Shown in pieces: positions 10,545-45,604 of a stretch of 45,604 nucleotides of DNA. Source of the stretch: Deferrisomatales bacterium (GTDB taxonomy: Bacteria > Desulfobacterota > Deferrisomatia > Deferrisomatales > JACRMM01); the NCBI GenBank assembly GCA_033551855.1, contig JAWSUI010000024.1, positions 8,458 through 54,061 on the forward strand. The letters are read 5' to 3'. The position numbers and the translations under genes were made by a program. The notes beneath the pieces are model-generated. The model had not been told where the DNA came from and did no database searches. It saw only the letters and a list, made by a program, of their open reading frames with translations. Positions within the stretch are counted from its first letter, which is position 1; every line of letters starts with the position of its first letter.

Positions 10545-10560
10545 TCGGATCTAATCGAGG

Positions 10561-17561: not shown

Positions 17562-17575
17562 CGAGGGGCCTCGTT

Positions 17576-19656: not shown

Positions 19657-19755
19657 ATCGGCACCTCGCCACCTCTTTCGGCCTGCGCCCCCCCGTTTCG
19701 ATGGCCGCTTCCGGGAAAGGGCAAACTTTCTCGCCCTGGGCCTGTGGGAAGGGGC

Positions 19756-22896: not shown

Positions 22897-22915
22897 GATG
22901 GTCGCCGAACAGGAG

Positions 22916-24936: not shown

Positions 24937-24987
24937 GCGAGAATCTCTCAGGGGCTCGGGGTCGCGAGCCCGGAGCAGCAGAACATT

Positions 24988-27394: not shown

Positions 27395-27407
27395 GTCCGT
27401 TCACCCT

Positions 27408-29692: not shown

Positions 29693-29904
29693 GCGGACTC
29701 TACTCTCCTTTCATCCATCTCGGGCCCAAACGCGCCGGGGGAGCCGCCGCTGTGGGGGCATCCGGTCGAGGTGCTTCGAGTCATGACATGCACGAGGAAA
29801 AACGGTCACAAAACGAAGCTGCGGCTCAACGAAACCTCCCGGAAGAAGCGGACATGAGTCACGGCATGAAACCGCCCCTCTCGAGCGCCACACATCGAGC
29901 CGGC

Positions 29905-31026: not shown

Positions 31027-31027
31027 A

Positions 31028-32362: not shown

Positions 32363-32373
32363 GGGGTCAGGGG

Positions 32374-33060
32374 TCAGGGATTGGGGGCTGGGGGTCGGGG
32401 GCTGGGTGGGGTGCGGGGACGCGGCTTCTCGGCGGAGCCCGACAGGACCTCCTCATAGCTGAGAGCCGGCGCGAGAATCCTGTCCTCCGGAACGCCCCTC
32501 TCGCTCAAAGCCCCTTTCAACTGCCCGGCACGGGGGAGGCAGGTGATCACGATCGGGGCGCCGGCGGCCGCGCGGACGCCCTCCTCCAGGGAGACCACCG
32601 GCTTGGCGAGGAACCGGCCGCCGAATTCCTCGTCCATCACCACGGCCAGGTCCAGGCCTGCCTCGCACAGGGAGAGGTAGGCGATCTCGGTCAGGTCGTC
32701 GACGCCGCAGAAGGCGACGCGGGCCACTCCGCGGGCCTGCAGGGCGCGGAAGGCGCCTAGGCTGTCCTGCCGCGTAATACGGTACAGCTTGTGGTAGTTC
32801 CCGAGGTGCCGGTAGGCCAGGCGGCTCTTCTCGGCGAAGCCCTTCGGGGTCAGTAGGTAGGCGTAGCGGTTGCGCGGGTAGGCCTTGACCTGCACGCACC
32901 CCTTCTTCACCAGCGTCTTCAGGTAGGAGTTGACGAGACCCAGGGCGATCCCCAGCCGCCCGGCGATCTCTCGCTGGGAAACCGGTTCGCCGTTCTCCAG
33001 CTCGGTCATCAGCAGGAGGGAGCGGAGGGAATCCGGGTCGTGGCCCCTCGTATCGTTCAT
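32374..33060 (-). CDS. Winged-helix regulator, MarR EPS-associated type, with C-terminal Rossmann-like domain
   Basis: SQREIAGRLGIALGLVNSYLK..KKG..YAYLLTPKGFAEKSRL; heads the glycan cluster. Confidence 0.88.
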   Translation of the reverse strand: MNDTRGHDPDSLRSLLLMTELENGEPVSQREIAGRLGIALGLVNSYLKTLVKKGCVQVKAYPRNRYAYLLTPKGFAEKSRLAYRHLGNYHKLYRITRQDSLGAFRALQARGVARVAFCGVDDLTEIAYLSLCEAGLDLAVVMDEEFGGRFLAKPVVSLEEGVRAAAGAPIVITCLPRAGQLKGALSERGVPEDRILAPALSYEEVLSGSAEKPRPRTPPSPRPPAPNP

Positions 33061-33138
33061 ACTGTGAACGATACTCCGGTCACACCCCACAGGGCAAGTG
33101 ATTACAGGTGCGTGGGAGATACTTATTCACACGGTGAA
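33050..33138. promoter_or_regulatory. Two TTCA-N5-TGAA operators: GTATCGTTCA-N5-TGAACGATAC over the start codon (33050-33074) and 33126-33138
   Basis: 10-bp perfect arms, and a second copy of the same core. Confidence 0.6.
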
Positions 33139-33381
33139 CGCCTCCCCGTGGCCGGGAGGGGAGTCGCCGGGGCACCATCAAGGAAGGAGCCCTTTGCCGG
33201 CAGAAAAACGCACACAAGCGGCATGTGCGCCAGAGCGGCGCTTGCGAAGTCTCAGAGGGAGCGCGACCATGACCATGATCCTGACCATGGCCCCCTAGAG
33301 GAGCACGCCGCTGAGACAGGAAAGTATCGATGATTGCGGGCACAAGCCCCCCCTGCAGCTGCCGGGAACGTGAATGCCGTG

Positions 33382-34824
33382 CTACGAGCCATCCTCCGTT
33401 GTCCGAAACTTGACATCGCCTTCACGCGGCACCACCAGCGCCGGCCGCCGACCGGTTACGGGCTCCTCCCGGCCGGCCACCTGAATATCCGCGAGATCGA
33501 TCCCCAGCCGGTAGGCGAGTCCTTCGGCGCGGAAGCCGAGAAACCTGTGCTCGTCCTCGACCACCACCACCAGGGGTGCGGCAAAGAGCTCGGGTCTCGC
33601 CTCCCGCACGGCCTCCAGCCGCACCAGCTGCCGTTCCGCCCAGCGGGCGCGGCCGATGTGCGACGGAGAATCGAGGAAGAAGTTCCCCAGCGTCGCGAGG
33701 GTCGAGGACAGAATGGCCAACAGAAGGACTTGCGGCACCCTCCGGCCGCCTTGCACCGCCAGACCGGCGGCGATCGCATAGGCCAGGAGCCCGATCGACG
33801 TGTAGTAGGGGTAACAATTGATACTCAGCGGGAAGTACGGAGCACAGCCGAGGACGTAGAAGGCAGCGAGTCCCGCGAGCTCCCTCCCCCTCAGGTGCTC
33901 GCGGGCTCCTCGAATCAGCAGAATTAGAGCGCCGGCCTGCAGGAGGAAGCTGGCCAGCCCCCACGCGGCGGCACCGAAAGACGGCCGGACGAAGAAGAAA
34001 AATCGCAGGGCCTCGAACGGCACGTTGAAGACGAAGAGGACCAGGGCAGCGGCGTTGCGTAGCAGATTCACACCATATTGGAACTCGTAGGCCGGGTCGG
34101 CAGGCAGAGTGAAGTGGCTCCGAAGCTGCAGCCAGATGAGAGCCGTGCCGACGCACAGCACACCGACCACCGCTGCGGCCGCCGAGGGACGATAACGGGG
34201 GCGCAGCCAGAGAGTGAGCAGGAGGCCGAGGGCGGGCAGGACGAAGGCGATGTCCCTGCTGAGGAGCGCAAGGACGAAGCAGACCACCGCCCCGACACCC
34301 GCCGCGGCGGCCCGGCGGCCCCAGGAGGTGGTGACTACCAACCAGAACCGCAGGGCCAGGGCGGAGAAAAGGACGCCGAGGGAAGCGTTCGCTGCCGAGG
34401 CCCACGCAGCCGGCAGGAAGTGCGCGGAATGAACGCCATACAGGAGCGCCGCGAGAAGTCCTGCCAAGCCCGCGTCGTGCTCCGGCACCCGCCGACTCAC
34501 GAAGGTGGAGACGAACCAGCCCACGGCCGCGGAGGCGGCGAGGAGCAGCAGAATGTTGGCGACGTGAGCCGCTCGGGCCGTGCCTCCCAAGGGGCCCTCG
34601 ACGAACCGCCAGTAGGTCCTCTCCCCCAGCGGCCTCCACCAGGGCACTTTGGCCTCGGGGAAGAACGCCGCATGCCATGGCTCGCCGGCCAATCGCGCCC
34701 GCTGTGCGTCGAGGAGGAAGTAGTAGTCGTCCTGCCAGAAGGGAACGTGCAGGGCCTGGGACCAGAACAGCGCCAGAAAGCCGCCAACGCAGAGAAACAG
34801 AAGAGGGCGGCGCAAGCCCTCCAT
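33382..34824 (-). CDS. GT-C-type polytopic membrane glycosyltransferase (GtrC/TMTC-core-like, no TPR)
   Basis: PFWQDD after TM1, WRPL, H..N..L, ALLYGVH..W; ~11-12 TM segments; follows gtrAB. Confidence 0.65.
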   Translation of the reverse strand: MEGLRRPLLFLCVGGFLALFWSQALHVPFWQDDYYFLLDAQRARLAGEPWHAAFFPEAKVPWWRPLGERTYWRFVEGPLGGTARAAHVANILLLLAASAAVGWFVSTFVSRRVPEHDAGLAGLLAALLYGVHSAHFLPAAWASAANASLGVLFSALALRFWLVVTTSWGRRAAAAGVGAVVCFVLALLSRDIAFVLPALGLLLTLWLRPRYRPSAAAAVVGVLCVGTALIWLQLRSHFTLPADPAYEFQYGVNLLRNAAALVLFVFNVPFEALRFFFFVRPSFGAAAWGLASFLLQAGALILLIRGAREHLRGRELAGLAAFYVLGCAPYFPLSINCYPYYTSIGLLAYAIAAGLAVQGGRRVPQVLLLAILSSTLATLGNFFLDSPSHIGRARWAERQLVRLEAVREARPELFAAPLVVVVEDEHRFLGFRAEGLAYRLGIDLADIQVAGREEPVTGRRPALVVPREGDVKFRTTEDGS

Positions 34825-35786
34825 CAGGCTTCACTTTCCTCTTGCTGCATGGCCGAAGGCAGGTACCGGTTCACCAGATACAGCGGCCTTTGCTTCGTCT
34901 CGTTGAACATCCGTCCCAGGTACTCCCCGATCATGCCGAGGCTCATGAGCTGGACGCCGCCGAGGAAGAGGATGACGACCATGAGGGAGGGGTAGCCCTG
35001 GACCGGGTCGCCGTAGACGAGGGTCTTGTAAATGACGAAGGCGGCGAAGAGAAATGCGCCGACAGAGGTCAAGAGACCCACGTAGGTGGCGATCTTCAGC
35101 GGAGCGATCGAGAACGAGGTGATCCCCTCCAGGGCGAAGTTCCACAGGCGCCAGTAGTTCCATTTGGTCTGGCCGGCGACGCGCGGGTCACGGCGGTAGT
35201 AGACGGCGACCTGGGGGTAGCCGATCCAGGCGAAGAGCCCCTTCATGAAGCGGTGCTGCTCGCGCAAGAGCTTCAGCGCTTCGACGGCCCGCCGGCTCAG
35301 CAGGCGGAAGTCTCCCGTGTCTTCCGGGATCCGGACGCGGCTGATGCCATGGATGGCCCGGTAGAAGAGCTTGGCCGTAGACTTCTTGAGAAAGGTCTCC
35401 CCCTCCCGCGCCGATCGGCGGGCGTAAACCACGTCGAAACCCTCCCGCCACCTGGTCACGAGCTCGGGGATCAGCTCGGGCGGGTCCTGCAGGTCGGCGT
35501 CGATCACCACCACCCCGTCTCCCCGGGCGTGGTCCAGCCCGGCGGTCAGCGCGATCTCCTTGCCGAAGTTCCGGCTCAGGTCGATGATGGCGACCCGCGG
35601 GTCGCCGAAACCGGTCATAACGCCCAGCGTGCCGTCGGTGCTGCCGTCGTTGACGTAGACGATCTCCCATTCGGCTCCCAGACGTTCCAACACCGCCGAG
35701 AGCCGCCGGTGGAGCTCGGGCAGGACCTCTTCCTCGTTGTATGCAGGGACGACGACCGAGAGAGTGAATTTCTCAGCGCCTGGCAA
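34824..35786 (-). CDS. gtrB: Bactoprenol-phosphate glycosyltransferase (GtrB/YfdH-like GT2)
   Basis: SRNFGKEIA, DADLQDPPE, GDFRLLSR, RFMKGLFAWIG, two C-terminal TMs, GEYLGR..KQRPLY. Confidence 0.9.
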   Translation of the reverse strand: MPGAEKFTLSVVVPAYNEEEVLPELHRRLSAVLERLGAEWEIVYVNDGSTDGTLGVMTGFGDPRVAIIDLSRNFGKEIALTAGLDHARGDGVVVIDADLQDPPELIPELVTRWREGFDVVYARRSAREGETFLKKSTAKLFYRAIHGISRVRIPEDTGDFRLLSRRAVEALKLLREQHRFMKGLFAWIGYPQVAVYYRRDPRVAGQTKWNYWRLWNFALEGITSFSIAPLKIATYVGLLTSVGAFLFAAFVIYKTLVYGDPVQGYPSLMVVILFLGGVQLMSLGMIGEYLGRMFNETKQRPLYLVNRYLPSAMQQEESEA

Positions 35787-36201
35787 CGGCGACCTCCTTG
35801 AACGTCCAGAACCGGTTGCAGAGAAAATTCCACACTAGAACGGCGGCCGTTGCCAGCATCTGGCTCAGCAAATAGTGGGCCCACCGAGTCGCCACGAACA
35901 TGATCACCGTATTCCACCCCAGGCCCGCCAGCGCCACCGTGAAGAATCGGACCAACGCCCCGCCATGGCGCTTTCTGCTGCGGAACGTGACGTGGTAGTT
36001 CAAGAGGTAGTTGACCAGCGCGCCGACCACGAAACCCGCCACCGAGGCGGGCACCGGATTCGTGCGGGCGGCCTGGACCAGCCCCACCAGGACGGCGAAG
36101 TGCACGGCTGTCCCCACGGTTCCGACAGCCGAGAACACCAGGAACTGCGCAAAGATCGGTCTCACGGGCACCCATTCGAAGAAGCGTTCAGGGCGCGGCA
36201 C
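35773..36201 (-). CDS. gtrA: GtrA-family flippase
   Basis: F..VG.VGT.V, NYLLN..VTF, WNF..NRFWTF; 4 TM. Confidence 0.9.
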   Translation of the reverse strand: MPRPERFFEWVPVRPIFAQFLVFSAVGTVGTAVHFAVLVGLVQAARTNPVPASVAGFVVGALVNYLLNYHVTFRSRKRHGGALVRFFTVALAGLGWNTVIMFVATRWAHYLLSQMLATAAVLVWNFLCNRFWTFKEVAVARR

Positions 36202-36228
36202 GCTGCGACAGGAGAGGGATCGCCGCCA

Positions 36229-38328
36229 TCAAGGCTCATCGCAGGGCCGGCTCAGAAACGACGCCAACCGGTCGGCCTGGCGTGGGTCGAGCTGCCGCAG
36301 GGCGCCGAGCTCACGGGTCGCCCCAGTACGGTCTCCCACGCAGTGCGCAGCCACCCCGAAGGCAAGGCGGGCGTCGGACCGATGAGCCAGGCGCGGCAGG
36401 TGCGGCGCCAGCGCGGCGGCGGCCTCCCGGAAACGCCCCACGTGGTTCAGCGCCTCTGCCAGCTCGACGAGGGCATTGTCGTAGTCCGGCTTGAGCGCCA
36501 CGGCCCGCTCCAGGGCCGCAACCGCCTCCGCACTGCGGCCTGCGAGCACATGGAGCCGTCCCAGGTTGTACCAGGCTCTCGCCTGTTCGGGACCGAGTCG
36601 GATCGCTTCGGAAAGCGCCGCAGCCGCCTCGTCCAGCCTGCCCACGTTGGTCAGGGCGGTACCGAGGTTGTTGAGCGCATCGGGGTTGTCGGGCTCGATC
36701 GCGACCGCACGGAAAAGGGCCGGTATCGCCTCCTGAAGCCGTCCCACCGAGGCCAGGGCCGCACCGAGGTTTGCGTACGATTCCACGTGTTCGGGGGCAA
36801 GGCGGACCGCCTCCGAGAGGGCGTCGATCGCCTCCTCCATCCGCCCCGCCTCCCCAAGGACCGCCCCGAGGTTGATATGGGCCCGGGCATTGCCGGGAGC
36901 CTTGGCCGCCGTGTCCTGCCAAAGGGCCACAGGATCTTGCCAGAGTCGGTTGCGCTGCCACGTGGCCACTCCCAGCGCCAGGACCGCAACGGCCGCCAGG
37001 GCCGTGAGGCCTCGGCAGAGGCTGGGGCGGTCGAGCTTCGCGACCAAGAGGGCCAATGCGGTGGACATAGCCGCGAAGGCCCCGAAGGACGGCAGGTAGA
37101 GGCGGTGCTCGAAGATCGGGTCGACGATGGGGATGACGCTCGATTCCACCGAGAGGGTGAGGAAGAACCAGAGGAGGCCGAAGGCAATGAGGCGGTTATC
37201 GGGGGTCAGGGGCCGGGGACTGGCGGGTCGAGATCGCCACCAGAGGAAAAGGGCGAGAAGAAGGAGAGCCGCCAGCAGCAGGAACGAGAGGAAGACCGGG
37301 GGAGTGAGGAAGGTCGTGTAGATCGGGTAGTCATAGTCCAGGTTCTGGTTGATGGGCAAGAAGAGGAGCCGGAGGTAGGTCACGATGACGCGGAACTGTG
37401 TGAAGAGATAGTGGGAGCGGGGGATGTCCGTCTGCACCCGGGCCGCCTCGCTCACGTCCGAGAGGATCTCTCCGGCCGACTCGCCGGCCGTGAGCACGCT
37501 CAGCGGCACGACGGGCAGCGTGGCCAGGATCGGCAGCAGCCAGAGCAGCCGCAGCTTCCATGGGCCGCGGAAGAAAAACACCTCGTACAGCATCACAGCC
37601 AGAGGCAGGGTGAACGCGATCTCCTTCGTCGTCATGGCCAGGACCGCGGAGAGCACCGACCCCGCCAGCCACAGCCACGGCCGCCCCATAGGGGCGACGC
37701 ATGCGTCGCCCGGCAATGCGCCGCCCCCACGCAAGCGCGCCTGGACGTACAACACGACCGAGAGCAGGTAGAAGAGCGTGCACAGGGAGGTCAGGCGCTG
37801 GACGACGTAGGTCACCGCCTGGGTCTGGACGGGGTGGGCGACGAAGAGGAGGGCGGCGAAGAGGGGCACGACCGTTCGAGGTTCGAACCGCCAAGACGCC
37901 AAGGACGCCAAGTTCGAGTCGAGGTTCGAGGTTTGAGATTCGAACTGGACCTTCTGACCCCCAGCCCCTGACCCCTGACCCCGGAAGTACGGGGTGCGGA
38001 AGATCAGGCGCAGGAGGGCGTAGACGAGGAGGGCCGAGACCAGATGGATCGCGAGGTTGACGGCGTGATAGCCCCGAACGTCGAAACCCCCGAGGTCGTA
38101 GTTGAGGGCGAAGGTCAGGTAGCCGACGAAGCGGCGAGGGTTGTAGTCATACCCCTCGCGGGTCCCCAGGAAGCGCTCCACCCCCCACACCAGGGGGTTC
38201 TCCGTGATCGACGGTTCGTCGTCGAAGACGAAGGGGACGTGAAAAGTGTTGGAATACGCGAGGGCCCCGACCACGACCACGAGGAGGGCCGCCAGAAGCG
38301 GCCGATAACGGGTAGGGGGATCCTTCAT
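36229..38328 (-). CDS. TMTC-like GT-C membrane glycosyltransferase with C-terminal TPRs, ~699 aa
   Basis: FVFDD..I..N, YHAVNLAIH, LFVAHPVQTQAV..R, KE, EHRLYLPS, RNRLW, then about 5-6 TPRs. Confidence 0.8.
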   Translation of the reverse strand: MKDPPTRYRPLLAALLVVVVGALAYSNTFHVPFVFDDEPSITENPLVWGVERFLGTREGYDYNPRRFVGYLTFALNYDLGGFDVRGYHAVNLAIHLVSALLVYALLRLIFRTPYFRGQGSGAGGQKVQFESQTSNLDSNLASLASWRFEPRTVVPLFAALLFVAHPVQTQAVTYVVQRLTSLCTLFYLLSVVLYVQARLRGGGALPGDACVAPMGRPWLWLAGSVLSAVLAMTTKEIAFTLPLAVMLYEVFFFRGPWKLRLLWLLPILATLPVVPLSVLTAGESAGEILSDVSEAARVQTDIPRSHYLFTQFRVIVTYLRLLFLPINQNLDYDYPIYTTFLTPPVFLSFLLLAALLLLALFLWWRSRPASPRPLTPDNRLIAFGLLWFFLTLSVESSVIPIVDPIFEHRLYLPSFGAFAAMSTALALLVAKLDRPSLCRGLTALAAVAVLALGVATWQRNRLWQDPVALWQDTAAKAPGNARAHINLGAVLGEAGRMEEAIDALSEAVRLAPEHVESYANLGAALASVGRLQEAIPALFRAVAIEPDNPDALNNLGTALTNVGRLDEAAAALSEAIRLGPEQARAWYNLGRLHVLAGRSAEAVAALERAVALKPDYDNALVELAEALNHVGRFREAAAALAPHLPRLAHRSDARLAFGVAAHCVGDRTGATRELGALRQLDPRQADRLASFLSRPCDEP
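37689..37711. repeat. REP inside the coding sequence (reads GDACVAP)
   Basis: TAGGGGCGACGCATGCGTCGCCC. Confidence 0.9.
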
Positions 38329-38565
38329 CGGCGAAAGCAGTCCGCCTCGGACGTGGAAGCTCGCCCCACCCTCATCGCAGCCTTCCCTCCCGAGGCTTCG
38401 CAATACGGTCGCCGTCCTTGACCGACGCCGGCACACCACCCGTTGTTTCCGTGGGGTCAAGACCGGCTGCAGGTTCCAGGGTCAAGGTTCCGCCTCCTGA
38501 GCACCGCCCATCGAAAGGCCCCCGCACCCCGGGTTTCGCCGCCGCGTGAACGCCGACCCATCCGG

Positions 38566-39900
38566 CTACTCACCCGCGTGGCACTTCTCGCACAGGCGGT
38601 TCTGGTTCGCCGCAAAGACACTGGCTGGTCGGTCGTAGTAGGCCCGGCGGGCCTCGGCCTCGGTTCGCCCCATGTGGTACTCGGGGGGCGCGCCGGTGTC
38701 GGTGCCCGGGTAGGCGCCCTCGTATACGATTCGGTCCGCATCCGGGTTCCAGCGCAGCATGGCCCGCCACCCCGAGGCGTGGGCCCGGTGACAGGTCAGG
38801 CACATCACCGTGTCCTGAGCACCGGGGCCGACGAGGTTCCCGTCGTCGGAGCGGGCGGCGGCCGCCATGGCTCCGCGGTCCTGAAGCGAGTTGCCGAGCT
38901 CCATCTGGAAAGGCACGAGCGAAGTAAACGAGCTTTCCTTGGAACCCGAGAGGTCCCCGGTCTTGACGTAGACGTTGTAATAATCCGAGGTCGAGCCCCC
39001 CAGGGGGTGGGACGTTCGGTTCCACTGGTGGTGCGGAAACCCGGTTCCCCCCTCTGGGGCGTGGCAGTTTCCGCACCACTCCGACACGTTCGACCCGTAG
39101 GCGACCCGTGTCTGTGCGGCCGATTCGGGCCGGTTGTATTGGGCCGGTGCGATGGCGGCGAAGGGGTCTTCGACGAAGACCTGGCCCGGCACGTACACCG
39201 GCTGGTACCCCCTGCCCGCTAGAAGGCGGTAGGCGCCCACGACAGAGCGTCCCGCGACGGGATTGCGGGCCAGCCCGTTCTCGCTCAGGGAGCCGGAGCC
39301 CTCGATGGGCAGCCCCGTCGTGGCCGTCGTCCCGTCGGGCATCACCCGGTACCGGCCGTGGGGGTCGTGGCAGCTCGTGCAGTACAGATATTGGGACGGG
39401 TAGGTGCCCCGGGGCGCCGTGGCGTGTAAGGCGTCGGACTGATACCCGAACTCGGGCGCCACGATGTTGTGCCCGTGCCGATCGCCCTCCTCCCTTCTCA
39501 GGAGCCCGCCCGCGACCCAGGTATAGGTGCGCTTGAGCCAGGCGAAGTCCCCCCCGGGGGTCATCATCTGGGGCGGGAGGCCCGCACCCAGCACCCCGTC
39601 CGAGGTGGAGACGAGGTGCTGCTGGGGAATCTGACCCTGGTGACAATGGAGACAGAGGGACGTAGGGGAGACGGCCTGGAGAAGAAAAGGGTTTCCCCCG
39701 ACCACGAACCCCTGCTCGGTGCCGTGCATGGTGTGGCACCCCTCGCACGGCGCAGCCCCCCCTTCGTGGAAGGCTCGGGCGGGAGTGGCGAACGCCAGGG
39801 TGGAGGCGAGCAGCAAACCCGCAGCGGCCGCGCCCCGGGCGCGGGTCTGCCGGCGTGCGGAAGACCGATCTGACCCCCTATCCAACACTGCTCGTCGCAT
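38566..39900 (-). CDS. OmcS-family hexaheme cytochrome, full-length type, ~444 aa
   Basis: FHEGGAAPCEGCHTMH, MTPGGDF.W, CHDPHGRYR..DG..ATTGLPI..SGS, YNR.E..QTRVAYG, CHRAHASG; 6 CxxCH; start uncertain. Confidence 0.92.
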   Translation of the reverse strand: MRRAVLDRGSDRSSARRQTRARGAAAAGLLLASTLAFATPARAFHEGGAAPCEGCHTMHGTEQGFVVGGNPFLLQAVSPTSLCLHCHQGQIPQQHLVSTSDGVLGAGLPPQMMTPGGDFAWLKRTYTWVAGGLLRREEGDRHGHNIVAPEFGYQSDALHATAPRGTYPSQYLYCTSCHDPHGRYRVMPDGTTATTGLPIEGSGSLSENGLARNPVAGRSVVGAYRLLAGRGYQPVYVPGQVFVEDPFAAIAPAQYNRPESAAQTRVAYGSNVSEWCGNCHAPEGGTGFPHHQWNRTSHPLGGSTSDYYNVYVKTGDLSGSKESSFTSLVPFQMELGNSLQDRGAMAAAARSDDGNLVGPGAQDTVMCLTCHRAHASGWRAMLRWNPDADRIVYEGAYPGTDTGAPPEYHMGRTEAEARRAYYDRPASVFAANQNRLCEKCHAGE

Positions 39901-39909
39901 TTCACCCAG

Positions 39910-39996
39910 GGTTCGAGATTCAAGGTTCAACGTTCTGACTTCGAAGTTCGACGTTCCGGCAGTTCAACCTCGAACATGGAACATCGAACGCCGAAC
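39910..39996. repeat. Intergenic heptamer tandem repeats in inverted arrangement (GGTTCGA)n...(TCGAACC)n
   Basis: Degenerate 7-nt periodicity on both arms. Confidence 0.8.
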
Positions 39997-40003
39997 AAGC
40001 CTC

Positions 40004-40912
40004 TCACCGGATCACCCGGAAGACCTGCACCCGGTTGTTCTCCCGGTCGGCGATGATCGCCTCTTCGGTGGCGGTCAGGCAGAGCTGCGCCGGGTAGTAG
40101 ACGAGGCCCTCTTTCCATCCGAGGGCGAGCTGGCGGCCCCGGTAGGTTCCGTCCTGGCCGAGCACGAGCACCCCGGCGCCGTTCTGATCCACCGCGTAGA
40201 CCCCCCCCCGGGCATCCGTGGCCAAGTGGGTGGGAAAGTTCGAGTACTGTTTGAGCTCGGCGGTGAGGAGGGTAAAGGCGCTGCTCCCCTTCTCCGCGCC
40301 GTAGAGCGCCCCGGCCACGCTGTCGAGCAGGAAGACCGTCCCCCGGGGGTCCACCGCGAGGTCCGAGATGAACCCGAAGCTCCCGGGAAACGGGAGCTCC
40401 CGCTGGAAGGCCCCGGAGGGGTCGGTCACGAGCACCCGCCGCCCGAAGGCGTCCAGGAAGTAGACGTTGTCCTCCCGGTCCAGGGCGAAGCTCCGGTACA
40501 CCGCAATCGCCGACCCGGGCGCACCCCTCGGTTCCACCGCCGCCAGGAACTGCCCGGCGGCCGAAAGGCGAAGCACCTGGCGGAGCTTCCCGTCCAGGAC
40601 CAGGATCTCGCCCTTGGAGCTCAGATGCAGGCGAACGGGGTACGTCGCCTGGGGGATCTTGAGCTCCGTCCCCCCGTCCAGCGCCGCCCCCGATACCGTG
40701 TAGCGCACCAGGCGGCCGTTGCCGGTGTCCGCCACCACCACCGTGCCGTCGGCCCCGCAGGCGACCCCCTCGGGCCGGTGCAGAGCCGCGCCCAAGGCGT
40801 CCGCGTACACCGAGCGGCCGTGGGCGAAGCGGACCGCCTCCGCCGCGTGGGCCGTCCCGACCAGCGCCAGCCCTGCGGCCAGGGCGCAAACTCTCCAGCT
40901 CAGACTCGCCAT
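40004..40912 (-). CDS. Exported NHL-repeat beta-propeller protein
   Basis: PEGVA..VVADTGNGR, DLAVD.RG, YYP..IIADRENNRVQVF; signal peptide. Confidence 0.9.
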   Translation of the reverse strand: MASLSWRVCALAAGLALVGTAHAAEAVRFAHGRSVYADALGAALHRPEGVACGADGTVVVADTGNGRLVRYTVSGAALDGGTELKIPQATYPVRLHLSSKGEILVLDGKLRQVLRLSAAGQFLAAVEPRGAPGSAIAVYRSFALDREDNVYFLDAFGRRVLVTDPSGAFQRELPFPGSFGFISDLAVDPRGTVFLLDSVAGALYGAEKGSSAFTLLTAELKQYSNFPTHLATDARGGVYAVDQNGAGVLVLGQDGTYRGRQLALGWKEGLVYYPAQLCLTATEEAIIADRENNRVQVFRVIR

Positions 40913-40917
40913 CTGTC

Positions 40918-42222
40918 TCACCTCTTGAACTGTTCGTGACACTGCACGCACAGGTTCGTAATGGTCGCAAAGGGGATCATGTGCTTGTACTCGGTGCCGT
41001 GGGACCGGTGGCAGCTCCGGCAGTCCGTTCCCAGGTTCGGATTTCTCGGGTCCACCACCTCCGGCCCGATGGGATGGCTCGAGTGTTTGTGCCAGTCGTG
41101 GCAAGAGCCGCAGAGATCAATCGTGCCCTCCTGCTTCGCCAGGAAGGGAAAATCGCTCGAATGGGGGTCGTGGCAGGCGGCGCAGTTTCCCTCCTGGACC
41201 GGCTCGTGCTTGGTCTCCGAGCGCTCGTGCCGGGCCTGGGTATCGGCGTGGCACTTCCCGCACACCTGGGTCGTGGTCCCGTCCAGGAGCGCCGGGTGCG
41301 ACGAGGCGTGGGGCCGGTGGCAGCTTAGGCACCCCTCTCCGCTCACGGCCGGCCCGTGGACCCGGTTCTTCCCCAGGGTCACGTTCACCATGTCGTTGTG
41401 GCACCCTCGGCATAGGTCGTAACCCTCTCGGCGGGCCTTGAGGGCATCGGGGGACTCCGGGGGAGGGTGGCACTGGGAGCACATCCTCCGCGCCACGGGG
41501 GAGTGCACGTCGTCGTAGAGGATCGACTCTCGGTTCGAGCCGTGGGGGTTGTGACAGCTCGTGCACCCGGCCTCCGCCACCGGGTAGTTGCCGTGCATCG
41601 CGGCGAAGGTCCTGCCGCTGGTGTCATGGCACTCGCGGCACAGACCGGGCACGGCGCTGGTGAGCAACGAGTCCGCCGCAGCCGAGGCGTGGGGGTTGTG
41701 GCAGCCCAGGCAGTCGTCCGCCACCGGGTCGTGGGGATGGGTGATCCCGGAAACCGCCGCCCGGATCGGCTCGTGGCAGCCGAAACACAGCTCGTTGCCC
41801 CCCTGGAGCAGGTTGTTCTTGTGCTGGGCGGCGTGCGGGTCGTGGCAGCTCCCGCACTTGCCCTCCACCACCGTGCGGTGCGCGCTGAGTGCACCTGCCG
41901 GCACCAGGGCGTCGTGGCAGTTGTAGCAGACCCGGGTCGGCTCCTCGGCCAGGAGTACCCCGTGCTTCGAGGTGTGGGGGTCGTGGCACCCGGTGCACTC
42001 CCCTTCCGCCACGGGGGTGTGCACGAAGGAGAGTTTCAGCTTGGCCTGGAACTCGCCGTGGCAGTCCAGGCAGAGATTTCCCCGGGCGCCGGGCTTGAGC
42101 TTGAACGGGTCCGCCGCCCGCCCCTGCCCCGGCACGGACACCAGAAACAGAAGGGCGGGAAGGGCCAGAAAGAGGGTCCGAAGGCGTCGCGCGCTCATGG
42201 TTGTCTCCGTAACGGCGGTCAT
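40918..42222 (-). CDS. 16-heme cytochrome c (paired CxxCH repeats)
   Basis: 16 CxxCH counted; signal peptide; start 42222 (ATGA overlap) or 42198. Confidence 0.93.
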   Translation of the reverse strand: MTAVTETTMSARRLRTLFLALPALLFLVSVPGQGRAADPFKLKPGARGNLCLDCHGEFQAKLKLSFVHTPVAEGECTGCHDPHTSKHGVLLAEEPTRVCYNCHDALVPAGALSAHRTVVEGKCGSCHDPHAAQHKNNLLQGGNELCFGCHEPIRAAVSGITHPHDPVADDCLGCHNPHASAAADSLLTSAVPGLCRECHDTSGRTFAAMHGNYPVAEAGCTSCHNPHGSNRESILYDDVHSPVARRMCSQCHPPPESPDALKARREGYDLCRGCHNDMVNVTLGKNRVHGPAVSGEGCLSCHRPHASSHPALLDGTTTQVCGKCHADTQARHERSETKHEPVQEGNCAACHDPHSSDFPFLAKQEGTIDLCGSCHDWHKHSSHPIGPEVVDPRNPNLGTDCRSCHRSHGTEYKHMIPFATITNLCVQCHEQFKR

Positions 42223-44201
42223 GGCTCCACCGTGTGGCAGTCTTCGCACGACCTCAGCGCGAACGGGGCGTGGACGATGGGCTTGAAGTACTTGGGATCG
42301 TTGGACGCGTGGGAGTCGTGGCACTTCGTGCAGCGCATTACGGCCGGGTCGATCCCGAGGTGTCGCTTGGTGAAGGAGGGCACGTCGGTCTCGTGGCAGT
42401 CCCCGCACAGGGCCAGGCCGGACCGGGTTAGGAGAGAGCGCTCCGGGGAGGAGTGCACCAGATGGCACGTCTCGCAGTCCTGGCGGGCCGGGAAGTGGGC
42501 CTTCTTGGTCTCGAGGTCCGCCTTGAGGTCGGCGTGGCAGGCCAGGCACATGTCCGGGCCCTTGGCGAAGAGGAGTCCCTCGAGCCTCGCCTTGTGGGGG
42601 TCGTGGCACTTCGTGCACTCGCCCCGTCTCACCGGCTCGTGCCCGCTCCGGCTCCTCGCGAGGTCCTCGCCGATCTCCGCGTGGCACTCCCTGCAGACGG
42701 CCTCCTGCCGGCCGGCGAGCATCCCGGCCTCGTTGCTCGCGTGGGCGTCGTGGCAGGTGAGGCACTCCCCATCGATGAACGGCGGGTGGTTCGAGCCCTC
42801 CGCCAGGGGGACCATGGCGTCTCCGTGGCAGGCGGCGCACAGCGTGGCCCCCTCGTCCTTGAGCAGATCCGCCCTGCCCGTTCCGTGGCCGTGGTGACAG
42901 GCGGCGCACTTGGCCTCGGCCACGGGCCGGTGGGTGTAGGTGCGCACGAACTTGGCCTCCTCCGCCACGTGGCACCCGTAGCACAGGTCATCCATGCGCG
43001 CCTTCACCATCGAGCCCAGGTTCGATCCATGGGGGTCGTGGCACGCACCGCAGTCCCGTCCGGCGAAGGGGTCGTGGGCCTTGGCGGCGGTCAGCGCCTT
43101 CTCGAGGTCGCCGTGGCAGGTGAAGCACAGCTCCTCGGCCGGCTCCCGGAGCAGCCCTTTGGCGGGGGCCGCGTGGGCGCCGTGGCACGAGAGGCACCCG
43201 TCCCCGTCGGTAACCGCCGCGTGGGGCACCGAGACCCTGCGCCCCTTCTCCGCGTGGCACGCGAAACAAACCCGGTTCCCCTCGGCCACGAGGAGGTCGG
43301 CCGCCTTCGCCGTATGTGGATCGTGACAGCTCAGGCAGTCACCGTCGGAGAAGGGCGCGTGCTCCACCACCGCGCTTCCCTTGACCAGAGAGGACGGGTC
43401 GTGGCACTGGTGGCAGAGCGCGCTTCCCTTCTCTGTGGTCCCGAACGGTTCTGCGGCCGAGGCCGCCCCGTGGCAGTCGCCGCAGCTCGCGTCCGCCACC
43501 GGCGCGTGGACCGGCCCCAGGAGGAGCTTGGCCGTGCCGGAGGAGTGAGGCGCGTGGCAGGTCCCGCACGCGCTCTTCTCCACGGGATACCCTCCGTGGG
43601 CCTTCGTGAAGGCGCGCGTCTTCCCGTCGTGACACGAAAGGCAGAGGGTCGGGTCCCTGGCCGTCAGGAGGTCCGGGTTCTCGGAAGCGTGGGCCTTGTG
43701 GCAGGCCATGCACCCCTTGTCCGCGGGGACCTTGTGCACCACCTTCCCCTCGTGCTCCTTCCGATCGTGGCACGAGTAGCAGAGCTCGCCCCCCGGGCGG
43801 ACCAGCAGGTGGGCGCCGTCCGACCCGTGGGGGTCGTGGCACTCGGTGCACTTGCCCGCCTTGAGGGCCGAGTGCACGGAGCCCTTGTCCATCCCGATGG
43901 ACTCCTTGCTGTGGCACCCCTGGCAGAGCGCGTTCCCCGTCTCCTTGAGCAGCAGCTTGGGGACGAGCCCGTGGCGCAGGTGGCAGTCCTCGCACCGGCC
44001 CTCCTTGGCCGCCGAGTGGACGAACTTCCTGTCGAGGTACTTCGCGGCGAAGTCCTTGTGGCAGTCCAGGCAGGTCCGCTGCTTGAACTGCCGCTGCCGC
44101 TGCGCCGAAGCGTCGGAGCTCCAGAGCAGGACGATGGCGGGGCCGACAAGGGCCAGTACTGCCAAGACTGCCCAAGAGCGTCTCCTATTCCACGACCACA
44201 T
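42219..44201 (-). CDS. 26-heme cytochrome c
   Basis: 26 CxxCH counted; signal peptide; GGAGGA RBS. Confidence 0.95.
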   Translation of the reverse strand: MWSWNRRRSWAVLAVLALVGPAIVLLWSSDASAQRQRQFKQRTCLDCHKDFAAKYLDRKFVHSAAKEGRCEDCHLRHGLVPKLLLKETGNALCQGCHSKESIGMDKGSVHSALKAGKCTECHDPHGSDGAHLLVRPGGELCYSCHDRKEHEGKVVHKVPADKGCMACHKAHASENPDLLTARDPTLCLSCHDGKTRAFTKAHGGYPVEKSACGTCHAPHSSGTAKLLLGPVHAPVADASCGDCHGAASAAEPFGTTEKGSALCHQCHDPSSLVKGSAVVEHAPFSDGDCLSCHDPHTAKAADLLVAEGNRVCFACHAEKGRRVSVPHAAVTDGDGCLSCHGAHAAPAKGLLREPAEELCFTCHGDLEKALTAAKAHDPFAGRDCGACHDPHGSNLGSMVKARMDDLCYGCHVAEEAKFVRTYTHRPVAEAKCAACHHGHGTGRADLLKDEGATLCAACHGDAMVPLAEGSNHPPFIDGECLTCHDAHASNEAGMLAGRQEAVCRECHAEIGEDLARSRSGHEPVRRGECTKCHDPHKARLEGLLFAKGPDMCLACHADLKADLETKKAHFPARQDCETCHLVHSSPERSLLTRSGLALCGDCHETDVPSFTKRHLGIDPAVMRCTKCHDSHASNDPKYFKPIVHAPFALRSCEDCHTVEP

Positions 44202-44220
44202 GATTCCTCCCGATTAGAGC

Positions 44221-44308
44221 GGTTCGAGGTTCGAGGTTCCGGGTTCGTAGGGTACGTGTCCGGGGTTCAGGGTGTTCAACATCGAACCTCGAACCTGGAA
44301 CCTCGAAC
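44221..44308. repeat. Intergenic heptamer tandem repeats in inverted arrangement
   Basis: GGTTCGAGGTTCGAGGTTCCGGGTTCG ... AACATCGAACCTCGAACCTGGAACCTCGAAC. Confidence 0.85.
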
Positions 44309-45579
44309 TACGGTGTGCTGAACTCCTTCGCGTACACCTCCACCCCGTAAGCCTCGCCCAGCTTTCGGGTCCAGTCCCGCAGGGCCGCGTCGGTCTTCTC
44401 CTTGTACACGTCCTGGAGCACGCTGCGCTGCACTTCCTCCAAGGTCTGCACCCTCGCGGGCACGCGCTTCTCCACCTGCAGCACGTGGACGACCGTGTCC
44501 GACTCGGCGAAGAGCACGTACTCCCCCTCCTGGGCCCCCTCCAGCGCCCGCCGGGCGGCTTCGGGCAGAGCGGTCCACGCCACCATACCCGCGCCGAAGC
44601 GGAGGATGTCCTCCCGGTCCGACGCCACCTGCCCCTCGGCGTTCGCCCGGACCCAGCGCAGGCCCGTTCCCCGCTTGAGCTTCTCCAGGGCGGACTGGGC
44701 GTGCGCGGCGCCGGTGAAGGCCAGGGACTGGAGCCTGAGCATCTCCGGGAAGGTGTAGCTCTCCAGGTTCTTCTCGTAGTGGTCCCGCAGGTCGCCCACG
44801 GTGATCTGCAGCTCGGGCTTGAGCACCTTCTCCACGAACGCGCCGAACACGAAGGAATCCTCGTAGTCCTCGAAGGCCCCCCGGAACTCCCGGGTCTTGT
44901 CCAGCCCCAGCGCCAGGGCCTCCTTCAGGAAGACCCGCTTGAAGAGCTCGTCGTTGAGCACCGGGATCTTCTTGTCGTTGACGTCGCGACTCTCGATGGC
45001 CTTTCCCATGCCGTGGTAGTACTTCTCGCGGATGCCCCGGGCCAGGTCCGAGACCCGGAACGGCTCCTCTCCGGCCACCTCGGCCACCACCCGGTGGTCG
45101 TCGCGGCGCGCCTCGAAGTTCTCGATCGTCCCCCCGAAGTCGAGGCTCTCGAAGAGCTCCCGGTCGAGCTTCACATACTTCTCGGTGAGCTCCCGGTTGT
45201 AGGCGGCCAGGGCCGTGTTCTGGGCGAAGTTGAGCGCCCGCTGCCGCGCCAGGGCCCGAGCCTCCTCGCTCTCTACGAACCGCACCTCCTCGAGCTCGAT
45301 GACGGCGAAGCCGTCCTGCGTCGGGACCACCGGCGTCAGCCCGCCCACCTCGAGGGCCCCGAGCTCGCCGGCGAGCTCGGGCGAGACCCCGTCGCTCCGC
45401 ACGAACTCGCCGGTCTCCCCGCCCTGGAGCTCCGCCTTGCCCTCGGCCACCTGCTTCCGCGCCGCCTCGCCGAAGGCCGCCCCCCCGGCCACGGCCTCCC
45501 GAAACGCCCGGGCGTCCGCCTCCTCCGGGAACACGACCCCCCGGAGCCGCCACTTTTTCCTTCCGGGCCAGCGCGTCCT
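44308..45579 (-). CDS. PpiC/SurA-like periplasmic chaperone (rotamase domains), 5' part missing or frameshifted
   Basis: Two rotamase-like segments (F.EAAR..LEVG.LTPVV..GFAVI; YEKNLESY..PE..), EALALGLDK, TLEEV..V; in-frame stop at 45580-45582, no signal peptide in this frame. Confidence 0.7.
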   Translation of the reverse strand, partial: RTRWPGRKKWRLRGVVFPEEADARAFREAVAGGAAFGEAARKQVAEGKAELQGGETGEFVRSDGVSPELAGELGALEVGGLTPVVPTQDGFAVIELEEVRFVESEEARALARQRALNFAQNTALAAYNRELTEKYVKLDRELFESLDFGGTIENFEARRDDHRVVAEVAGEEPFRVSDLARGIREKYYHGMGKAIESRDVNDKKIPVLNDELFKRVFLKEALALGLDKTREFRGAFEDYEDSFVFGAFVEKVLKPELQITVGDLRDHYEKNLESYTFPEMLRLQSLAFTGAAHAQSALEKLKRGTGLRWVRANAEGQVASDREDILRFGAGMVAWTALPEAARRALEGAQEGEYVLFAESDTVVHVLQVEKRVPARVQTLEEVQRSVLQDVYKEKTDAALRDWTRKLGEAYGVEVYAKEFSTP

Positions 45580-45604
45580 TCAGGGCATCCAAAACGGCCT
45601 CGAC

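Follow-up and report, generated by a model that had tools for sequence, protein, structure and literature searches.

Putative glycosylation genes directly behind an OmcS-type cytochrome nanowire cluster in a Deferrisomatales bacterium

The DNA analysed here is a stretch of 45,604 nucleotides from a Deferrisomatales bacterium, called the window below. Our examination confirmed that it contains an OmcS-type nanowire gene cluster followed by a four-gene unit that encodes a GT-C-fold membrane protein with a tetratricopeptide repeat (TPR) domain, a GtrA-family protein, a family 2 glycosyltransferase (GT2) and a second GT-C-fold protein (Table 1). From the combined analysis we tentatively propose that this unit puts a sugar onto undecaprenyl phosphate, brings it to the periplasmic face of the membrane and then likely transfers it to an OmcS-type subunit. 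The preliminary description of this DNA had listed nine co-oriented, closely set genes in the order PpiC, 26-heme, 16-heme, NHL, OmcS, TPR GT-C, GtrA, GT2 and second GT-C, and both order and coordinates were as described, with all nine genes on the minus strand. Starting at the PpiC gene and ending at the second GT-C gene, the successive spacings are 106, –4, 5, 73, 237, 27, –14, and –1 nt. The 26-heme and 16-heme genes share an ATGA, in which the ATG of the latter overlaps the stop codon of the former. Within the four-gene unit, 27 nt separate the TPR GT-C gene from the GtrA gene, the GtrA and GT2 genes overlap by 14 nt, and the start of the second GT-C gene shares 1 nt with the GT2 stop. A consensus scan found no terminator-like site in the 237-nt gap that separates OmcS1 from the TPR GT-C gene; the only hairpin of this kind follows the last gene of the unit. 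This gap could hold a separate promoter, which counts against the proposal.

Table 1. Positions of the genes and other features discussed in the text.
Feature	Position	Strand	Evidence
OscH-like PpiC-type peptidyl-prolyl isomerase, complete	44308..45534	-	PF13145 2.2e-21; PF00639 5.3e-09
OscI-like 26-heme periplasmic cytochrome	42219..44201	-	26 CXXCH; 13 Paired_CXXCH_1 stretches
OscJ-like 16-heme cytochrome	40918..42222	-	16 CXXCH
OscK-like NHL beta-propeller with signal peptide	40004..40912	-	PF01436 2.6e-17
OmcS1, hexaheme OmcS homolog	38566..39930	-	6 CXXCH; conserved CEGCHTMH; phmmer against 6EF8
TPR GT-C-fold membrane glycosyltransferase (predicted)	36229..38328	-	AlphaFold fold match; TPR Pfam matches; loop-1 VPFVFDD
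GtrA-family small membrane protein	35773-36201	-	PF04138 3.2e-25
GtrB/ArnC/PgfS-like GT2	34824-35786	-	PF00535 5.8e-34; NCBIfam below cut-offs
Second GT-C-fold membrane protein, without TPR (predicted)	33382-34824	-	AF2 model; Foldseek; loop-1 VPFWQDD
Terminator-like hairpin, 3' of four-gene unit	33210..33230	-	Consensus scan only
MarR-type regulator	32374..33090	-	TIGR04176 63.3 bits (cut-off 88); PF13412/PF01047
Sugar cluster, ~18 kb, opened by four-gene unit	14911..32452	-	Pfam; NCBIfam matches all below cut-offs
Wzx-type flippase, in sugar cluster	31028-32452	-	Pfam
IS4/5 transposase, in sugar cluster	18331-19533	-	
Truncated GT2, in sugar cluster	14911-15282	-	
OmcS2, hexaheme OmcS paralog	13556-14851	-	phmmer 6EF8 7e-60; 6 CXXCH
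OmcS3, hexaheme OmcS paralog	12216-13421	-	phmmer 6EF8 4e-79; 6 CXXCH

OmcS1 matches the OmcS structure (PDB 6EF8) over its full length (phmmer E 1.8e-97, residues 54-453 against chain residues 1-406), and its predicted mature N-terminus, FHEGG, is the same as in OmcS; the gene call of the collection itself places its start at 39885. The genes before it are homologs of oscH-I-J-K, and the osc layout given in the preliminary description agrees with accounts of the Geobacter sulfurreducens operon (Shen et al., 2025, as described in PMC13194489 and PMC12977616). Both have the order PpiC (OscH), 26-heme (oscI = GSU2495), 16-heme (oscJ = GSU2494) and NHL with OmcS paralogs nearby, whereas the window has one OmcS gene 3' of the NHL gene and then glycosylation genes; the parts of these two accounts that describe the operon make no mention of glycosyltransferases. 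In a survey of 65 loci anchored on OmcS homologs, a PpiC-type gene lay beside OmcS in 40, homologs of the 26-heme gene in 34 (44-51% identity), of the 16-heme gene in 36, and of the NHL gene in nine (at least 40% coverage). The contig extends for about 70 nt beyond the start of the PpiC gene. Contig C86 carries three more OmcS genes as well as one that is OscD-like. With OmcS1 on one side of the sugar genes and OmcS2 and OmcS3 (12216..14851) on the other, the sugar island is enclosed in an OmcS superlocus.

The preliminary description had taken both large membrane proteins of the unit for GT-C enzymes. Profile searches did not bear this out, because neither membrane domain had a Pfam match at E <= 10 or an NCBIfam match, and neither protein had a glycosyltransferase sequence match in the PDB. 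By contrast, predicted structures and a VPFxxDD motif kept in loop 1 of both confirmed that they are GT-C-fold enzymes. The first has a membrane domain (residues ~1-460) and a C-terminal TPR domain (~470-699), and D36/D37 of its motif are nearly invariant among 41 sequences. Its model (AF2, pLDDT 87.5) aligned best in VIA-align with Pmt1-Pmt2 (6p2r_B, Z 19.6), followed by AglB (18.7), Pmt4 (17.9) and ArnT (16.7). The TPR domain matched PF23914, a CcmH/CycH apocytochrome-chaperone TPR family, at 59.8 bits (cut-off 42), which carries little weight, since the same domain gave matches to 20 TPR families; the polysaccharide-export models PgaA, BcsC, and PrsT matched it as well. Several homologs are named 'protein O-mannosyl-transferase' by JGI, and ESM Atlas neighbours carry PMT_2 or, in one case, TMTC_DUF1736. 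The model of the second protein (pLDDT 90.2) matched STT3 (8age_A, 3.6e-05), ALG12, ArnT (5f15, 2.3e-04), AglB, and PglB in Foldseek, and its family aligned with that of the TPR enzyme in hhalign (probability 74.7%, E 2.6e-05). This family is small and orphan, and none of the 32 homologs has a Pfam domain.

The identities proposed earlier for the two genes between these held up. The GtrA-family protein is a putative helper in flipping lipid-linked sugar. The GT2 has two C-terminal transmembrane helices, and a GtrB/ArnC/DPMS type of build is supported; from its sequence it is predicted to be a polyprenyl-phosphate sugar synthase. Its best NCBIfam matches, both near full length, were PgfS (4.2e-85, 285.7 bits) and the ArnC type (3.2e-52, 177.5 bits), and both are below the equivalog cut-offs (500 and 529, respectively). 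An operon with such a GT2, a GtrA-family protein and one or more GT-C enzymes is also seen in the GtrA/GtrB/GtrC, ArnC/ArnEF/ArnT, and Streptococcus mutans Pgf systems, except that the window has two GT-C enzymes, one with TPRs. The Gtr and Arn systems modify O-antigen or lipid A rather than proteins, and the Pgf system glycosylates adhesins. The likeness of the TPR enzyme to eukaryotic TMTCs, claimed earlier, stands as far as fold and C-terminal TPRs are concerned, but there was no Pfam match at E <= 10 to PF08409, nor to PF02366 or PF13231. It shares its fold and acidic loop-1 motif with TMTC1-4 (GT105) and PMT (GT39), and PMTs are among its top fold matches. It differs in having no MIR domain and in its donor, which would be undecaprenyl-P-sugar, not dolichyl-P-mannose. 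The substrates of TMTCs are cadherins.

A close parallel is with TfpW, the pilin arabinofuranosyltransferase of those Pseudomonas aeruginosa strains that have group IV pilins. It is described as an 11-TM GT-C enzyme that has a TPR domain in the periplasm, needs its DDX motif and is encoded right after pilA, the gene for its substrate (bioRxiv 10.1101/2020.04.19.049825). Judged from that published description, the two enzymes share their size (~650-700 aa) and a GT-C domain of many TM helices with an acidic DD(x) motif in the first periplasmic loop, and both end in a large TPR domain on the periplasmic side. They are also alike in their polyprenyl-phosphate monosaccharide donor (predicted for the window enzyme) and in being encoded immediately 3' of a filament-subunit gene, here OmcS1. 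TfpW differs in that it modifies a type IV pilin, not a cytochrome, with D-Araf made by dedicated genes. A second parallel is with OmcE wires of Geobacter and Geomonas, where GT2/4/39, TPR, exporter and regulator genes follow OmcE clusters whose wires have glycan-like density (PMC13712944, mBio 2026). In both systems a nanowire cluster precedes genes for transferases of the GT2, GT4 and GT39 types, for enzymes that modify sugars, for methyltransferases and sugar exporters, and for TPR proteins and regulators, and in both only some lineages have the glycosylation genes. The OmcE proposal differs in its wire and in the extra cryo-EM density seen on G. sulfurreducens OmcE, whereas the wire genes of the window are of the OmcS/osc type; the available text names no single enzyme. 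The earlier statement that no characterised enzymes are known for such a pathway still holds, but for OmcE the idea of a glycosylation cluster attached to a nanowire cluster has been published (PMC13712944). Our literature search found no published glycosylation link for OmcS wires.

Linkage of OmcS with the module in other genomes is real but partial. In three sequenced lineages, and probably in three more, the OmcS relatives of at least 55% identity, which are the closest ones, have the TPR GT-C gene directly behind them. Loci L011/L102 have OmcS (56%) and the TPR GT-C gene (52%) on the same strand, then DUF559, GT41, and Wzx genes, and L092 has 16-heme, NHL, OmcS (56%), and TPR GT-C (53%). 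The same-strand junction is kept in these relatives while genes further downstream vary. Equal contig size and common source suggest that an OmcS1 homolog and a close TPR GT-C homolog share contigs of 47716 bp (P0173/P0004, together with P0125, a homolog of the second GT-C enzyme), 6239 bp (P0164/P0030), and 9361 bp (P0166/P0090). Elsewhere, L020 has an NHL gene followed by TPR GT-C (43%), L086 has 26-heme, 16-heme, NHL, three GT-C genes and Wzx, GT-C genes precede OmcS tandems in L061, L023, and L026, and L101, L111, and L137 have further GT-C arrangements beside osc/OmcS genes.

Across the 65 OmcS-anchored loci, a TPR GT-C gene occurred in seven, only three of them with at least 40% identity, and GtrA, GtrB and the second GT-C in none. 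No TPR GT-C gene was downstream of osc in the five genomes with OmcS upstream of oscD-K, two of which lacked any match at E <= 1e-8, and in Geomonas, Geotalea, and one Nitrospirota locus the order NHL, OmcS is as in the window with glycosylation genes absent behind OmcS. A survey of 77 loci around close TPR GT-C homologs gave OmcS/osc-type or multiheme matches at 13, and at 10 of the 37 with at least 1.5 kb upstream, although such loose counts are inflated because genes for multiheme cytochromes abound in this group of organisms. L081, L083, and L091 had some of the closest TPR GT-C homologs (55-56%) and no OmcS match upstream. The preliminary description had suggested a check for synteny of the TMTC-like gene and gtrAB with omcS/osc; the former recurs and the latter do not. 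The module is an add-on to a single OmcS lineage rather than core osc machinery.

The earlier claim of a dedicated periplasmic pathway for OmcS is partly supported, by the tight unit behind OmcS1 and the recurrence of the TPR enzyme, but not by the other three genes or by the many osc/OmcS clusters without the module. Because the linkage is partial, dedicated OmcS glycosylation is the best reading but unproven. In the proposed pathway, the GT2 would make a polyprenyl-P-monosaccharide on the cytoplasmic face, GtrA would assist its flipping, and the TPR domain would hold an acceptor protein, for which OmcS1 is the leading candidate. The GT-C domain would then make the O-linkage in the manner of TfpW on pilin and PMT/TMTC on their substrates, prior to secretion and polymerisation of the subunit. 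The second GT-C enzyme, at the gtrC position of gtrABC operons, may extend or branch the glycan, and the downstream Wzx/GT2/GT4/deoxy-amino-sugar cluster may either provide a larger glycan or make a surface polymer of its own. To our knowledge, no glycan has been reported on G. sulfurreducens OmcS structures.

It is rather unlikely, though the main alternative, that the four-gene unit and the sugar cluster instead build or decorate a surface polysaccharide (EPS or O-antigen-like). Both GT-C enzymes would then work in the periplasm like GtrC or ArnT, using undecaprenyl-P-sugar to attach side-branch sugars, and the link with OmcS would be ecological or regulatory, such as a wire-holding matrix, not covalent on the cytochrome. 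Geobacter Xap polysaccharide anchors cytochromes. The gene order gtrA, gtrB, GT-C is that of gtrABC, ArnT is among the top fold matches of both enzymes, and TPR domains are found in polysaccharide export proteins. The sugar cluster has two radical SAM enzymes, an NDP-hexose C-methyltransferase, an RmlC-like protein, three epimerase/dehydratases, a DegT aminotransferase, an FkbM methyltransferase, four GT2 genes, and two GT4 genes. It has an EPS-like flavour; the best NCBIfam models for the flippase, GT4s and regulator (an EPS-associated MarR type) are EPS or PEP-CTERM-system models, but all these matches are far below curated cut-offs, and Pfam recognised no Wzy, Wzz, WaaL, or outer-membrane exporter in the window. 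Wzx is adjacent to close TPR GT-C homologs as often as OmcS is (7/77 each), and the neighbours of this family are often plain GT2/GT4/Wzx/ABC-exporter genes, many of the loci having GT2/GT4/exporter neighbours only. Against this, the OmcS and TPR GT-C genes stay together while other sugar genes change, and the structure that the TPR enzyme matches best in fold is that of a protein O-mannosyltransferase.

That the module serves general periplasmic protein O-glycosylation, with pilins, lipoproteins, OscK, or other cytochromes as substrates and OmcS1 at most one of them, seems improbable. The TPR GT-C family is very large (at least 3432 proteins at E <= 0.001 among 8000 candidates scored), some genomes have many paralogs, and the neighbourhoods of the family vary, yet this genome has a single close copy, directly behind an OmcS gene, an adjacency kept by the closest OmcS relatives. 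The one other paralog is weak (29% identity, contig C3), so chance adjacency to OmcS is unlikely here. Functionless adjacency, caused by chance insertion of a mobile sugar island into an OmcS gene array, is very unlikely in our estimation, even though the island contains a transposase and a truncated GT2, is flanked on both sides by OmcS paralogs and includes the second GT-C gene, which was found in only one of 401 same-phylum genomes sampled. Insertion is hard to square with the same junction in L011/L102 and L092, where OmcS is only 56% identical to OmcS1, and the island does not stand out in G+C, its 0.60-0.68 falling inside the range of the window.

The window takes up the final 45.6 kb of a 54-kb contig in a 4.24-Mb draft genome (69.6% G+C), and nearly all its genes are carried on the minus strand. 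The preliminary description proposed a run of nine genes ending in a second membrane protein, and gene calls, Pfam and NCBIfam matches and CXXCH counts bore out this order. The hexaheme cytochrome in the run, OmcS1, matched OmcS (PDB 6EF8) over its full length (E 1.8e-97; query 54-453 on chain 1-406), and its two paralogs in the window matched with E 7e-60 and 4e-79. The predicted mature N-terminus of OmcS1 is the same as that of OmcS. When the two were aligned, CEGCHTMH was identical, and a histidine three residues past the first CXXCH is the equivalent of His16 of OmcS, which we take to be the inter-subunit heme ligand. The order OscH-OscI-OscJ-OscK of the OmcS companion (osc) cluster is also seen beside OmcS in loci from other genomes (L011, L012, L013, L035, L049, L057 and others). 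The osc-type run agrees with the G. sulfurreducens osc operon as the accessible portions of two papers give it, an eight-gene block (GSU2500-2493) with OscH for folding, oscI as GSU2495 and oscJ as GSU2494 (PMC13194489; PMC12977616). Our contig stops a short way upstream of the PpiC gene. As for OscD-G, another contig, C86, has an OscD-like match (40%, 701 aa) and C123 has one further match; a search for the small 159-aa ORF gave no match.

Positions of features in the window
Feature	Position (nt)	Strand	Remarks
PpiC-type isomerase, OscH-like	44308-45534	-	
26-heme cytochrome, OscI-like	42219-44201	-	26 CXXCH
16-heme cytochrome, OscJ-like	40918-42222	-	16 CXXCH; ATG overlaps 26-heme stop as ATGA
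NHL propeller, OscK-like	40004-40912	-	
OmcS1, hexaheme cytochrome	38566-39930	-	6 CXXCH
Membrane and TPR protein (TPR GT-C)	36229-38328	-	699 aa
GtrA	35773-36201	-	
GT2, GtrB-like	34824-35786	-	
Second membrane protein (second GT-C)	33382-34824	-	480 aa
Terminator-like hairpin	33230-33210		after second GT-C gene only
Sugar genes	21796-31026		one radical SAM with SPASM; aminotransferase DegT/PseC-like
IS4/5-family transposase	18331-19533		DDE_Tnp_1 + DUF4096; within sugar cluster
Truncated GT2 fragment	14911-15282		adjoins OmcS2
OmcS2, OmcS paralog	13556-14851		
OmcS3, OmcS paralog	12216-13421		
Lcl_C-domain protein	3466-4095		
Lower-window genes (see text)	561-1115, 2518-3309, 8110-8970, 10215-11955		

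The protein encoded directly behind OmcS1, TPR GT-C, had been called a TMTC-like glycosyltransferase. Its membrane domain (residues 1-460) matched no Pfam (to E ≤ 10) or NCBIfam model and is therefore hidden in public annotation, which gives merely "tetratricopeptide repeat protein"; a PDB sequence search with this domain matched no solved glycosyltransferase. In the AlphaFold model (pLDDT 87.5), the best fold match of residues 3-480 was yeast Pmt1-Pmt2 (Z 19.6, rmsd 4.4, 373 aligned), with further matches to AglB (18.7), STT3 (17.2), ALG12 (17.2) and ArnT (16.7) and also to Pmt4, AftB and PglB. Foldseek on the whole protein returned TPR matches only, and the GT-C domain surfaced only with VIA-align wide. 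OGT-type TPR superhelices can be aligned to the C-terminal part, which has TPR Pfam matches at residues ~470-690; in layout the protein is like TMTCs, with a GT-C domain and TPR repeats at the C-terminal end. A crude hydropathy scan gave an odd number of TM helices and a positively charged N-terminus, consistent with a periplasmic C-terminus. In an alignment of 41 sequences of the family VPFVFDD stands directly after TM helix 1, with D36 and D37 at least 90% conserved. By contrast, TMTC_DUF1736 (PF08409) had no match in residues 1-450 (Pfam to E ≤ 10), and there was no Pfam match to PMT/PMT_2 models or MIR domains even though PMT is the best fold match. TMTC-like thus holds for fold and domain layout but not for membership in TMTC or PMT (GT39). 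With 3432 proteins at E ≤ 0.001 among 8000 candidates scored, this is a very large family, and relatives occur in Deltaproteobacteria, Geobacteraceae and Nitrospirota MAGs, several of them JGI-named "protein O-mannosyl-transferase". PMT_2 is present in 22 of 30 ESM Atlas feature neighbours, and a eukaryotic TMTC_DUF1736 cluster has rank 18 (score 0.93).

The second GT-C also had no match to Pfam (to E ≤ 10) or NCBIfam models. Its AlphaFold model (pLDDT 90.2) matched STT3 (3.6e-05), ALG12 (1.3e-04) and ArnT (2.3e-04) at TM about 0.5, as well as AglB and PglB, and VPFWQDD occurs in its family with D32 and D33 invariant (31 sequences); its earlier designation stands as a statement about fold. With hhalign it aligned to the first ~200 columns of the TPR GT-C family (probability 74.7%, E 2.6e-05), and the DD motifs align. 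A PDB sequence search matched no solved glycosyltransferase; its one match, to cytochrome b reductase 1 (E 0.0012), was taken as a chance match of membrane helices. This family is small, with 32 homologs among the candidates scored, all "hypothetical" and without a Pfam domain. Named relatives are from Nitrospirota/Dissulfurispiraceae MAGs, and of 401 sampled genomes of the phylum the gene was found in this one only, so that it was dropped as a synteny marker there. The GT2 has the build of GtrB/ArnC/DPMS (PF00535 at 10-170, TM helices at 234-252 and 262-280). Its best NCBIfam scores, PgfS (285.7 bits against a cut-off of 500) and ArnC-type (177.5 against 529), are below the equivalog cut-offs and the sugar therefore cannot be named. 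GtrA is a small 4-TM protein of PF04138 (3.2e-25; 89.1 bits against a cut-off of 26.1). The GtrB-like and GtrA genes of the unit suggest that both membrane proteins may use a lipid-phosphate-linked sugar donor. The four genes are spaced by 27, -14 and -1 nt. We saw no terminator-like site in the 237-nt gap behind OmcS1, which could hold a promoter. No RNA run was listed with words from 35700-40000; among DNA runs, one held 0.74 of the sampled words and four held 0.06-0.07.

We looked for linkage of this unit to omcS and osc in 65 genome loci anchored on OmcS homologs (flank up to 10 kb; tblastn E ≤ 1e-8, coverage at least 40%), many of which are cut by contig ends. Matches to PpiC were present in 40 of these loci, to the 16-heme cytochrome in 36, to the 26-heme cytochrome in 34, to NHL in nine, and to the N-terminal domain of TPR GT-C in seven; GtrA, GtrB and the second GT-C were each present in none. 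Of the four-gene unit, these 65 loci link only TPR GT-C to OmcS; its junction with OmcS is seen in L011/L102 and L092. The seven TPR GT-C matches are at 43-52% identity in L011, L020 and L061 and at 22-26% in L023, L026, L039 and L068. Because the fetched flank ends inside oscI/J in most loci where OmcS is upstream of oscD-K, five such genomes were searched whole. None of the five had TPR GT-C downstream of osc; two had no TPR GT-C match at all, and one had three, 1-16 kb upstream of an OmcS pair. Unrelated genes lie behind OmcS in the NHL-OmcS loci of Geomonas, Geotalea and one Nitrospirota MAG. These genomes and loci thus place the glycosylation genes outside the core osc system.

For the reverse comparison we used 77 metagenome loci with the closest TPR GT-C homologs (41-56% identity), on contigs mostly of 2-8 kb. 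OmcS/osc-type or multiheme matches were seen in 13 of the 77, and in 10 of the 37 loci with at least 1.5 kb upstream. By gene, OmcS, Wzx and GtrB-like GT2 were matched seven times each, and GtrA and the second GT-C once each. L092 has the order 16-heme (62%), NHL (49%), OmcS (56%), GT-C (53%). L011 has OmcS, TPR GT-C, DUF559, a GT41-TPR protein, Wzx (68%), radical SAM (62%) and C-methyltransferase (77%), with no GtrA, GtrB or second GT-C behind TPR GT-C; L102 has the same layout, is probably of the same population, and was counted with it once. In L086, 26-heme, 16-heme and NHL genes precede three GT-C genes, Wzx and a GtrB-like gene, and L101, L111 and L137 have an OmcS-like gene within a few kb. 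A Pfam scan of 143 neighbouring ORFs in 28 loci of at least 6 kb, leaving out four near-duplicate loci and nine long ORFs, found multiheme cytochromes and/or NHL in about nine loci and GT2, GT4, Wzx or PMT_2 in about half, with unrelated housekeeping genes elsewhere. In three loci (L081:1010-2368, L089:8456-9823, L124:3483-4838) the gene immediately upstream of TPR GT-C, on the opposite strand, codes for a ResB-like cytochrome c biogenesis protein, and two of these loci have multiheme cytochromes beyond it. The cytochrome clusters upstream of TPR GT-C in L084 and L081 were checked for OmcE: two small ORFs had no PDB cytochrome match and a 420-aa ORF of L084 matched OmcS weakly (E 0.0012), so that we do not present them as OmcE clusters. 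In L011, the closest syntenic locus, a GT41 (OGT-like) protein with TPRs (L011:14137-15822) replaces GtrA, GtrB and the second GT-C between TPR GT-C and Wzx.

We also paired OmcS1 homologs with GT-C homologs by equal size and source of their longest contigs. By this inferred pairing, P0173 (58%, 47716 bp, ENA) goes with P0004 (TPR GT-C) and P0125 (second GT-C), P0164 (70%, 6239 bp, ENA) with P0030 (TPR GT-C), and P0166 (57%, 9361 bp, Logan) with P0090 (TPR GT-C), while P0172 (59%, 5030 bp) is the L092 contig. At least four of the eight closest OmcS1 homologs on contigs of at least 5 kb would then have a GT-C partner; for the other four a partner may lie beyond the best 120 matches listed. Together with L011/L102, this suggests that the TPR GT-C gene is passed on along with one OmcS lineage, which has at least 55% identity to OmcS1 and a place behind oscK. 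The co-inheritance appears to span genomes where OmcS is just 56% identical to OmcS1 while the genes further downstream change. Two clade-specific Ser/Thr residues, T170 and S201 (439-aa form), were considered as glycosylation sites and dropped, since a comparison of 14 OmcS1-type with 17 other homologs is too thin.

The first gene downstream of the four-gene unit is that of a MarR-type regulator, whose best match, MarR_EPS, is below cut-off. It is followed in order by a Wzx-type flippase, two radical SAM enzymes, an NDP-hexose C-methyltransferase, an RmlC-like enzyme, three epimerase/dehydratases, a DegT aminotransferase, four GT2, two GT4, an FkbM methyltransferase and one IS4/5 transposase, and last OmcS2 and OmcS3. 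The sugar genes, none of which reached an NCBIfam cut-off, suggest an amino-deoxy sugar of an unusual type, branched or methylated. The genome has six OmcS paralogs, three in the window and three in tandem on C86 (C86:1577-9539), where an OscD-like gene follows, and C123 bears another osc-like piece. These two contigs and that of the window are probably one osc superlocus split by assembly, and the sugar island therefore sits within an OmcS/osc superlocus. The transposase and the truncated GT2 fragment are signs of rearrangement at the island's far edge.

The mechanism with the best support is periplasmic glycosylation by a system of three components, of which we infer every step past gene identity. 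The GT2 would make an undecaprenyl-P-sugar, GtrA would help to flip it, and the GT-C enzymes would transfer the sugar, the TPR-bearing transferase acting on the neighbouring filament subunit. Among characterised enzymes, TPR GT-C is closest, judging from the available part of the source, to TfpW of P. aeruginosa, an 11-TM protein with a DDX motif that is essential and a TPR domain in the periplasm; its gene comes immediately after pilA (bioRxiv 10.1101/2020.04.19.049825). As with TfpW, the GT-C and TPR gene here lies directly behind the gene of a predicted filament subunit, as it does in L011/L102 and L092. The closest published systems-level precedent, from what is accessible of PMC13712944, is the glycosylation cluster found behind the OmcE clusters of Geobacter and Geomonas; Desulfuromonas soudanensis is without that cluster and its OmcE is without extra density. 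Glycan-like extra densities are described on OmcE and archaeal cytochrome filaments and proposed to control bundling, insulation and attachment, and the accessible portions of neither paper name the enzyme (PMC13712944; PMC13748539).

That the locus glycosylates OmcS in a dedicated or preferential way, as originally predicted, we place a little short of an even chance. Its main rival, a surface-polysaccharide (EPS/LPS) role, seems to us somewhat unlikely: gtrA, gtrB and a GT-C gene follow one another as in O-antigen-modifying operons, the best matches of the regulator, flippase and GT4 genes tend to be EPS/PEP-CTERM-system models (all below cut-off), Wzx is as frequent as OmcS beside the TPR GT-C family, and polysaccharide exporters also carry TPR domains. 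On the side of OmcS glycosylation are the TfpW-like gene position and the OmcE precedent. A general protein O-glycosylation system is improbable; elsewhere the genome holds only one TPR GT-C relative, a weak one (29%, C3). The genome has only one other GtrB-like gene (28%, C12). Meaningless adjacency is very improbable, given the OmcS junctions that recur in other loci.

The components are of known kinds, and the idea of nanowires with glycosylation is already in print for OmcE. In a main-text literature search no paper tied glycosylation genes to OmcS/osc clusters; the study of Shen et al. 2025 (Cell Chem Biol) may bear on the point. The window adds a junction with one TPR GT-C gene that is specific to an OmcS lineage, a full set of donor-making genes within the same predicted operon, a second, orphan GT-C family, and a sugar island between OmcS paralogs. 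Behind a defined OmcS subfamily there is thus a small candidate set, consisting of TPR GT-C with its DD motif, the donor-making GT2 with GtrA, and the second GT-C. A bolder proposal, which we hold to be rather doubtful, is that one clade of TPR GT-C is a dedicated "nanowire glycosylase" that travels with a distinct OmcS subfamily (and with OmcE, going by the accessible part of PMC13712944). It would O-glycosylate the cytochrome subunit in the periplasm with GtrB/GtrA-made undecaprenyl-P-sugar, giving sugar-coated OmcS-type wires with glycan-tuned bundling, insulation or surface attachment. If OmcS glycosylation is true, nanowire glycosylation would be widened from OmcE to OmcS-type wires, two GT-C families without a Pfam or NCBIfam model, among them a very large one, would gain a function, and there would be a bearing on heterologous nanowire production. 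If the EPS reading is right, this is an ordinary surface-polysaccharide locus beside cytochrome genes.

The lower window has a HepT-like toxin domain protein, an IS200-like Y1 transposase remnant, a small cytochrome, a c7-type multiheme cytochrome on the plus strand and an AAA_14/DUF4143 ATPase. The Lcl_C-domain protein found there also occurs in L089 (L089:14703-15260), a few kb downstream of TPR GT-C.
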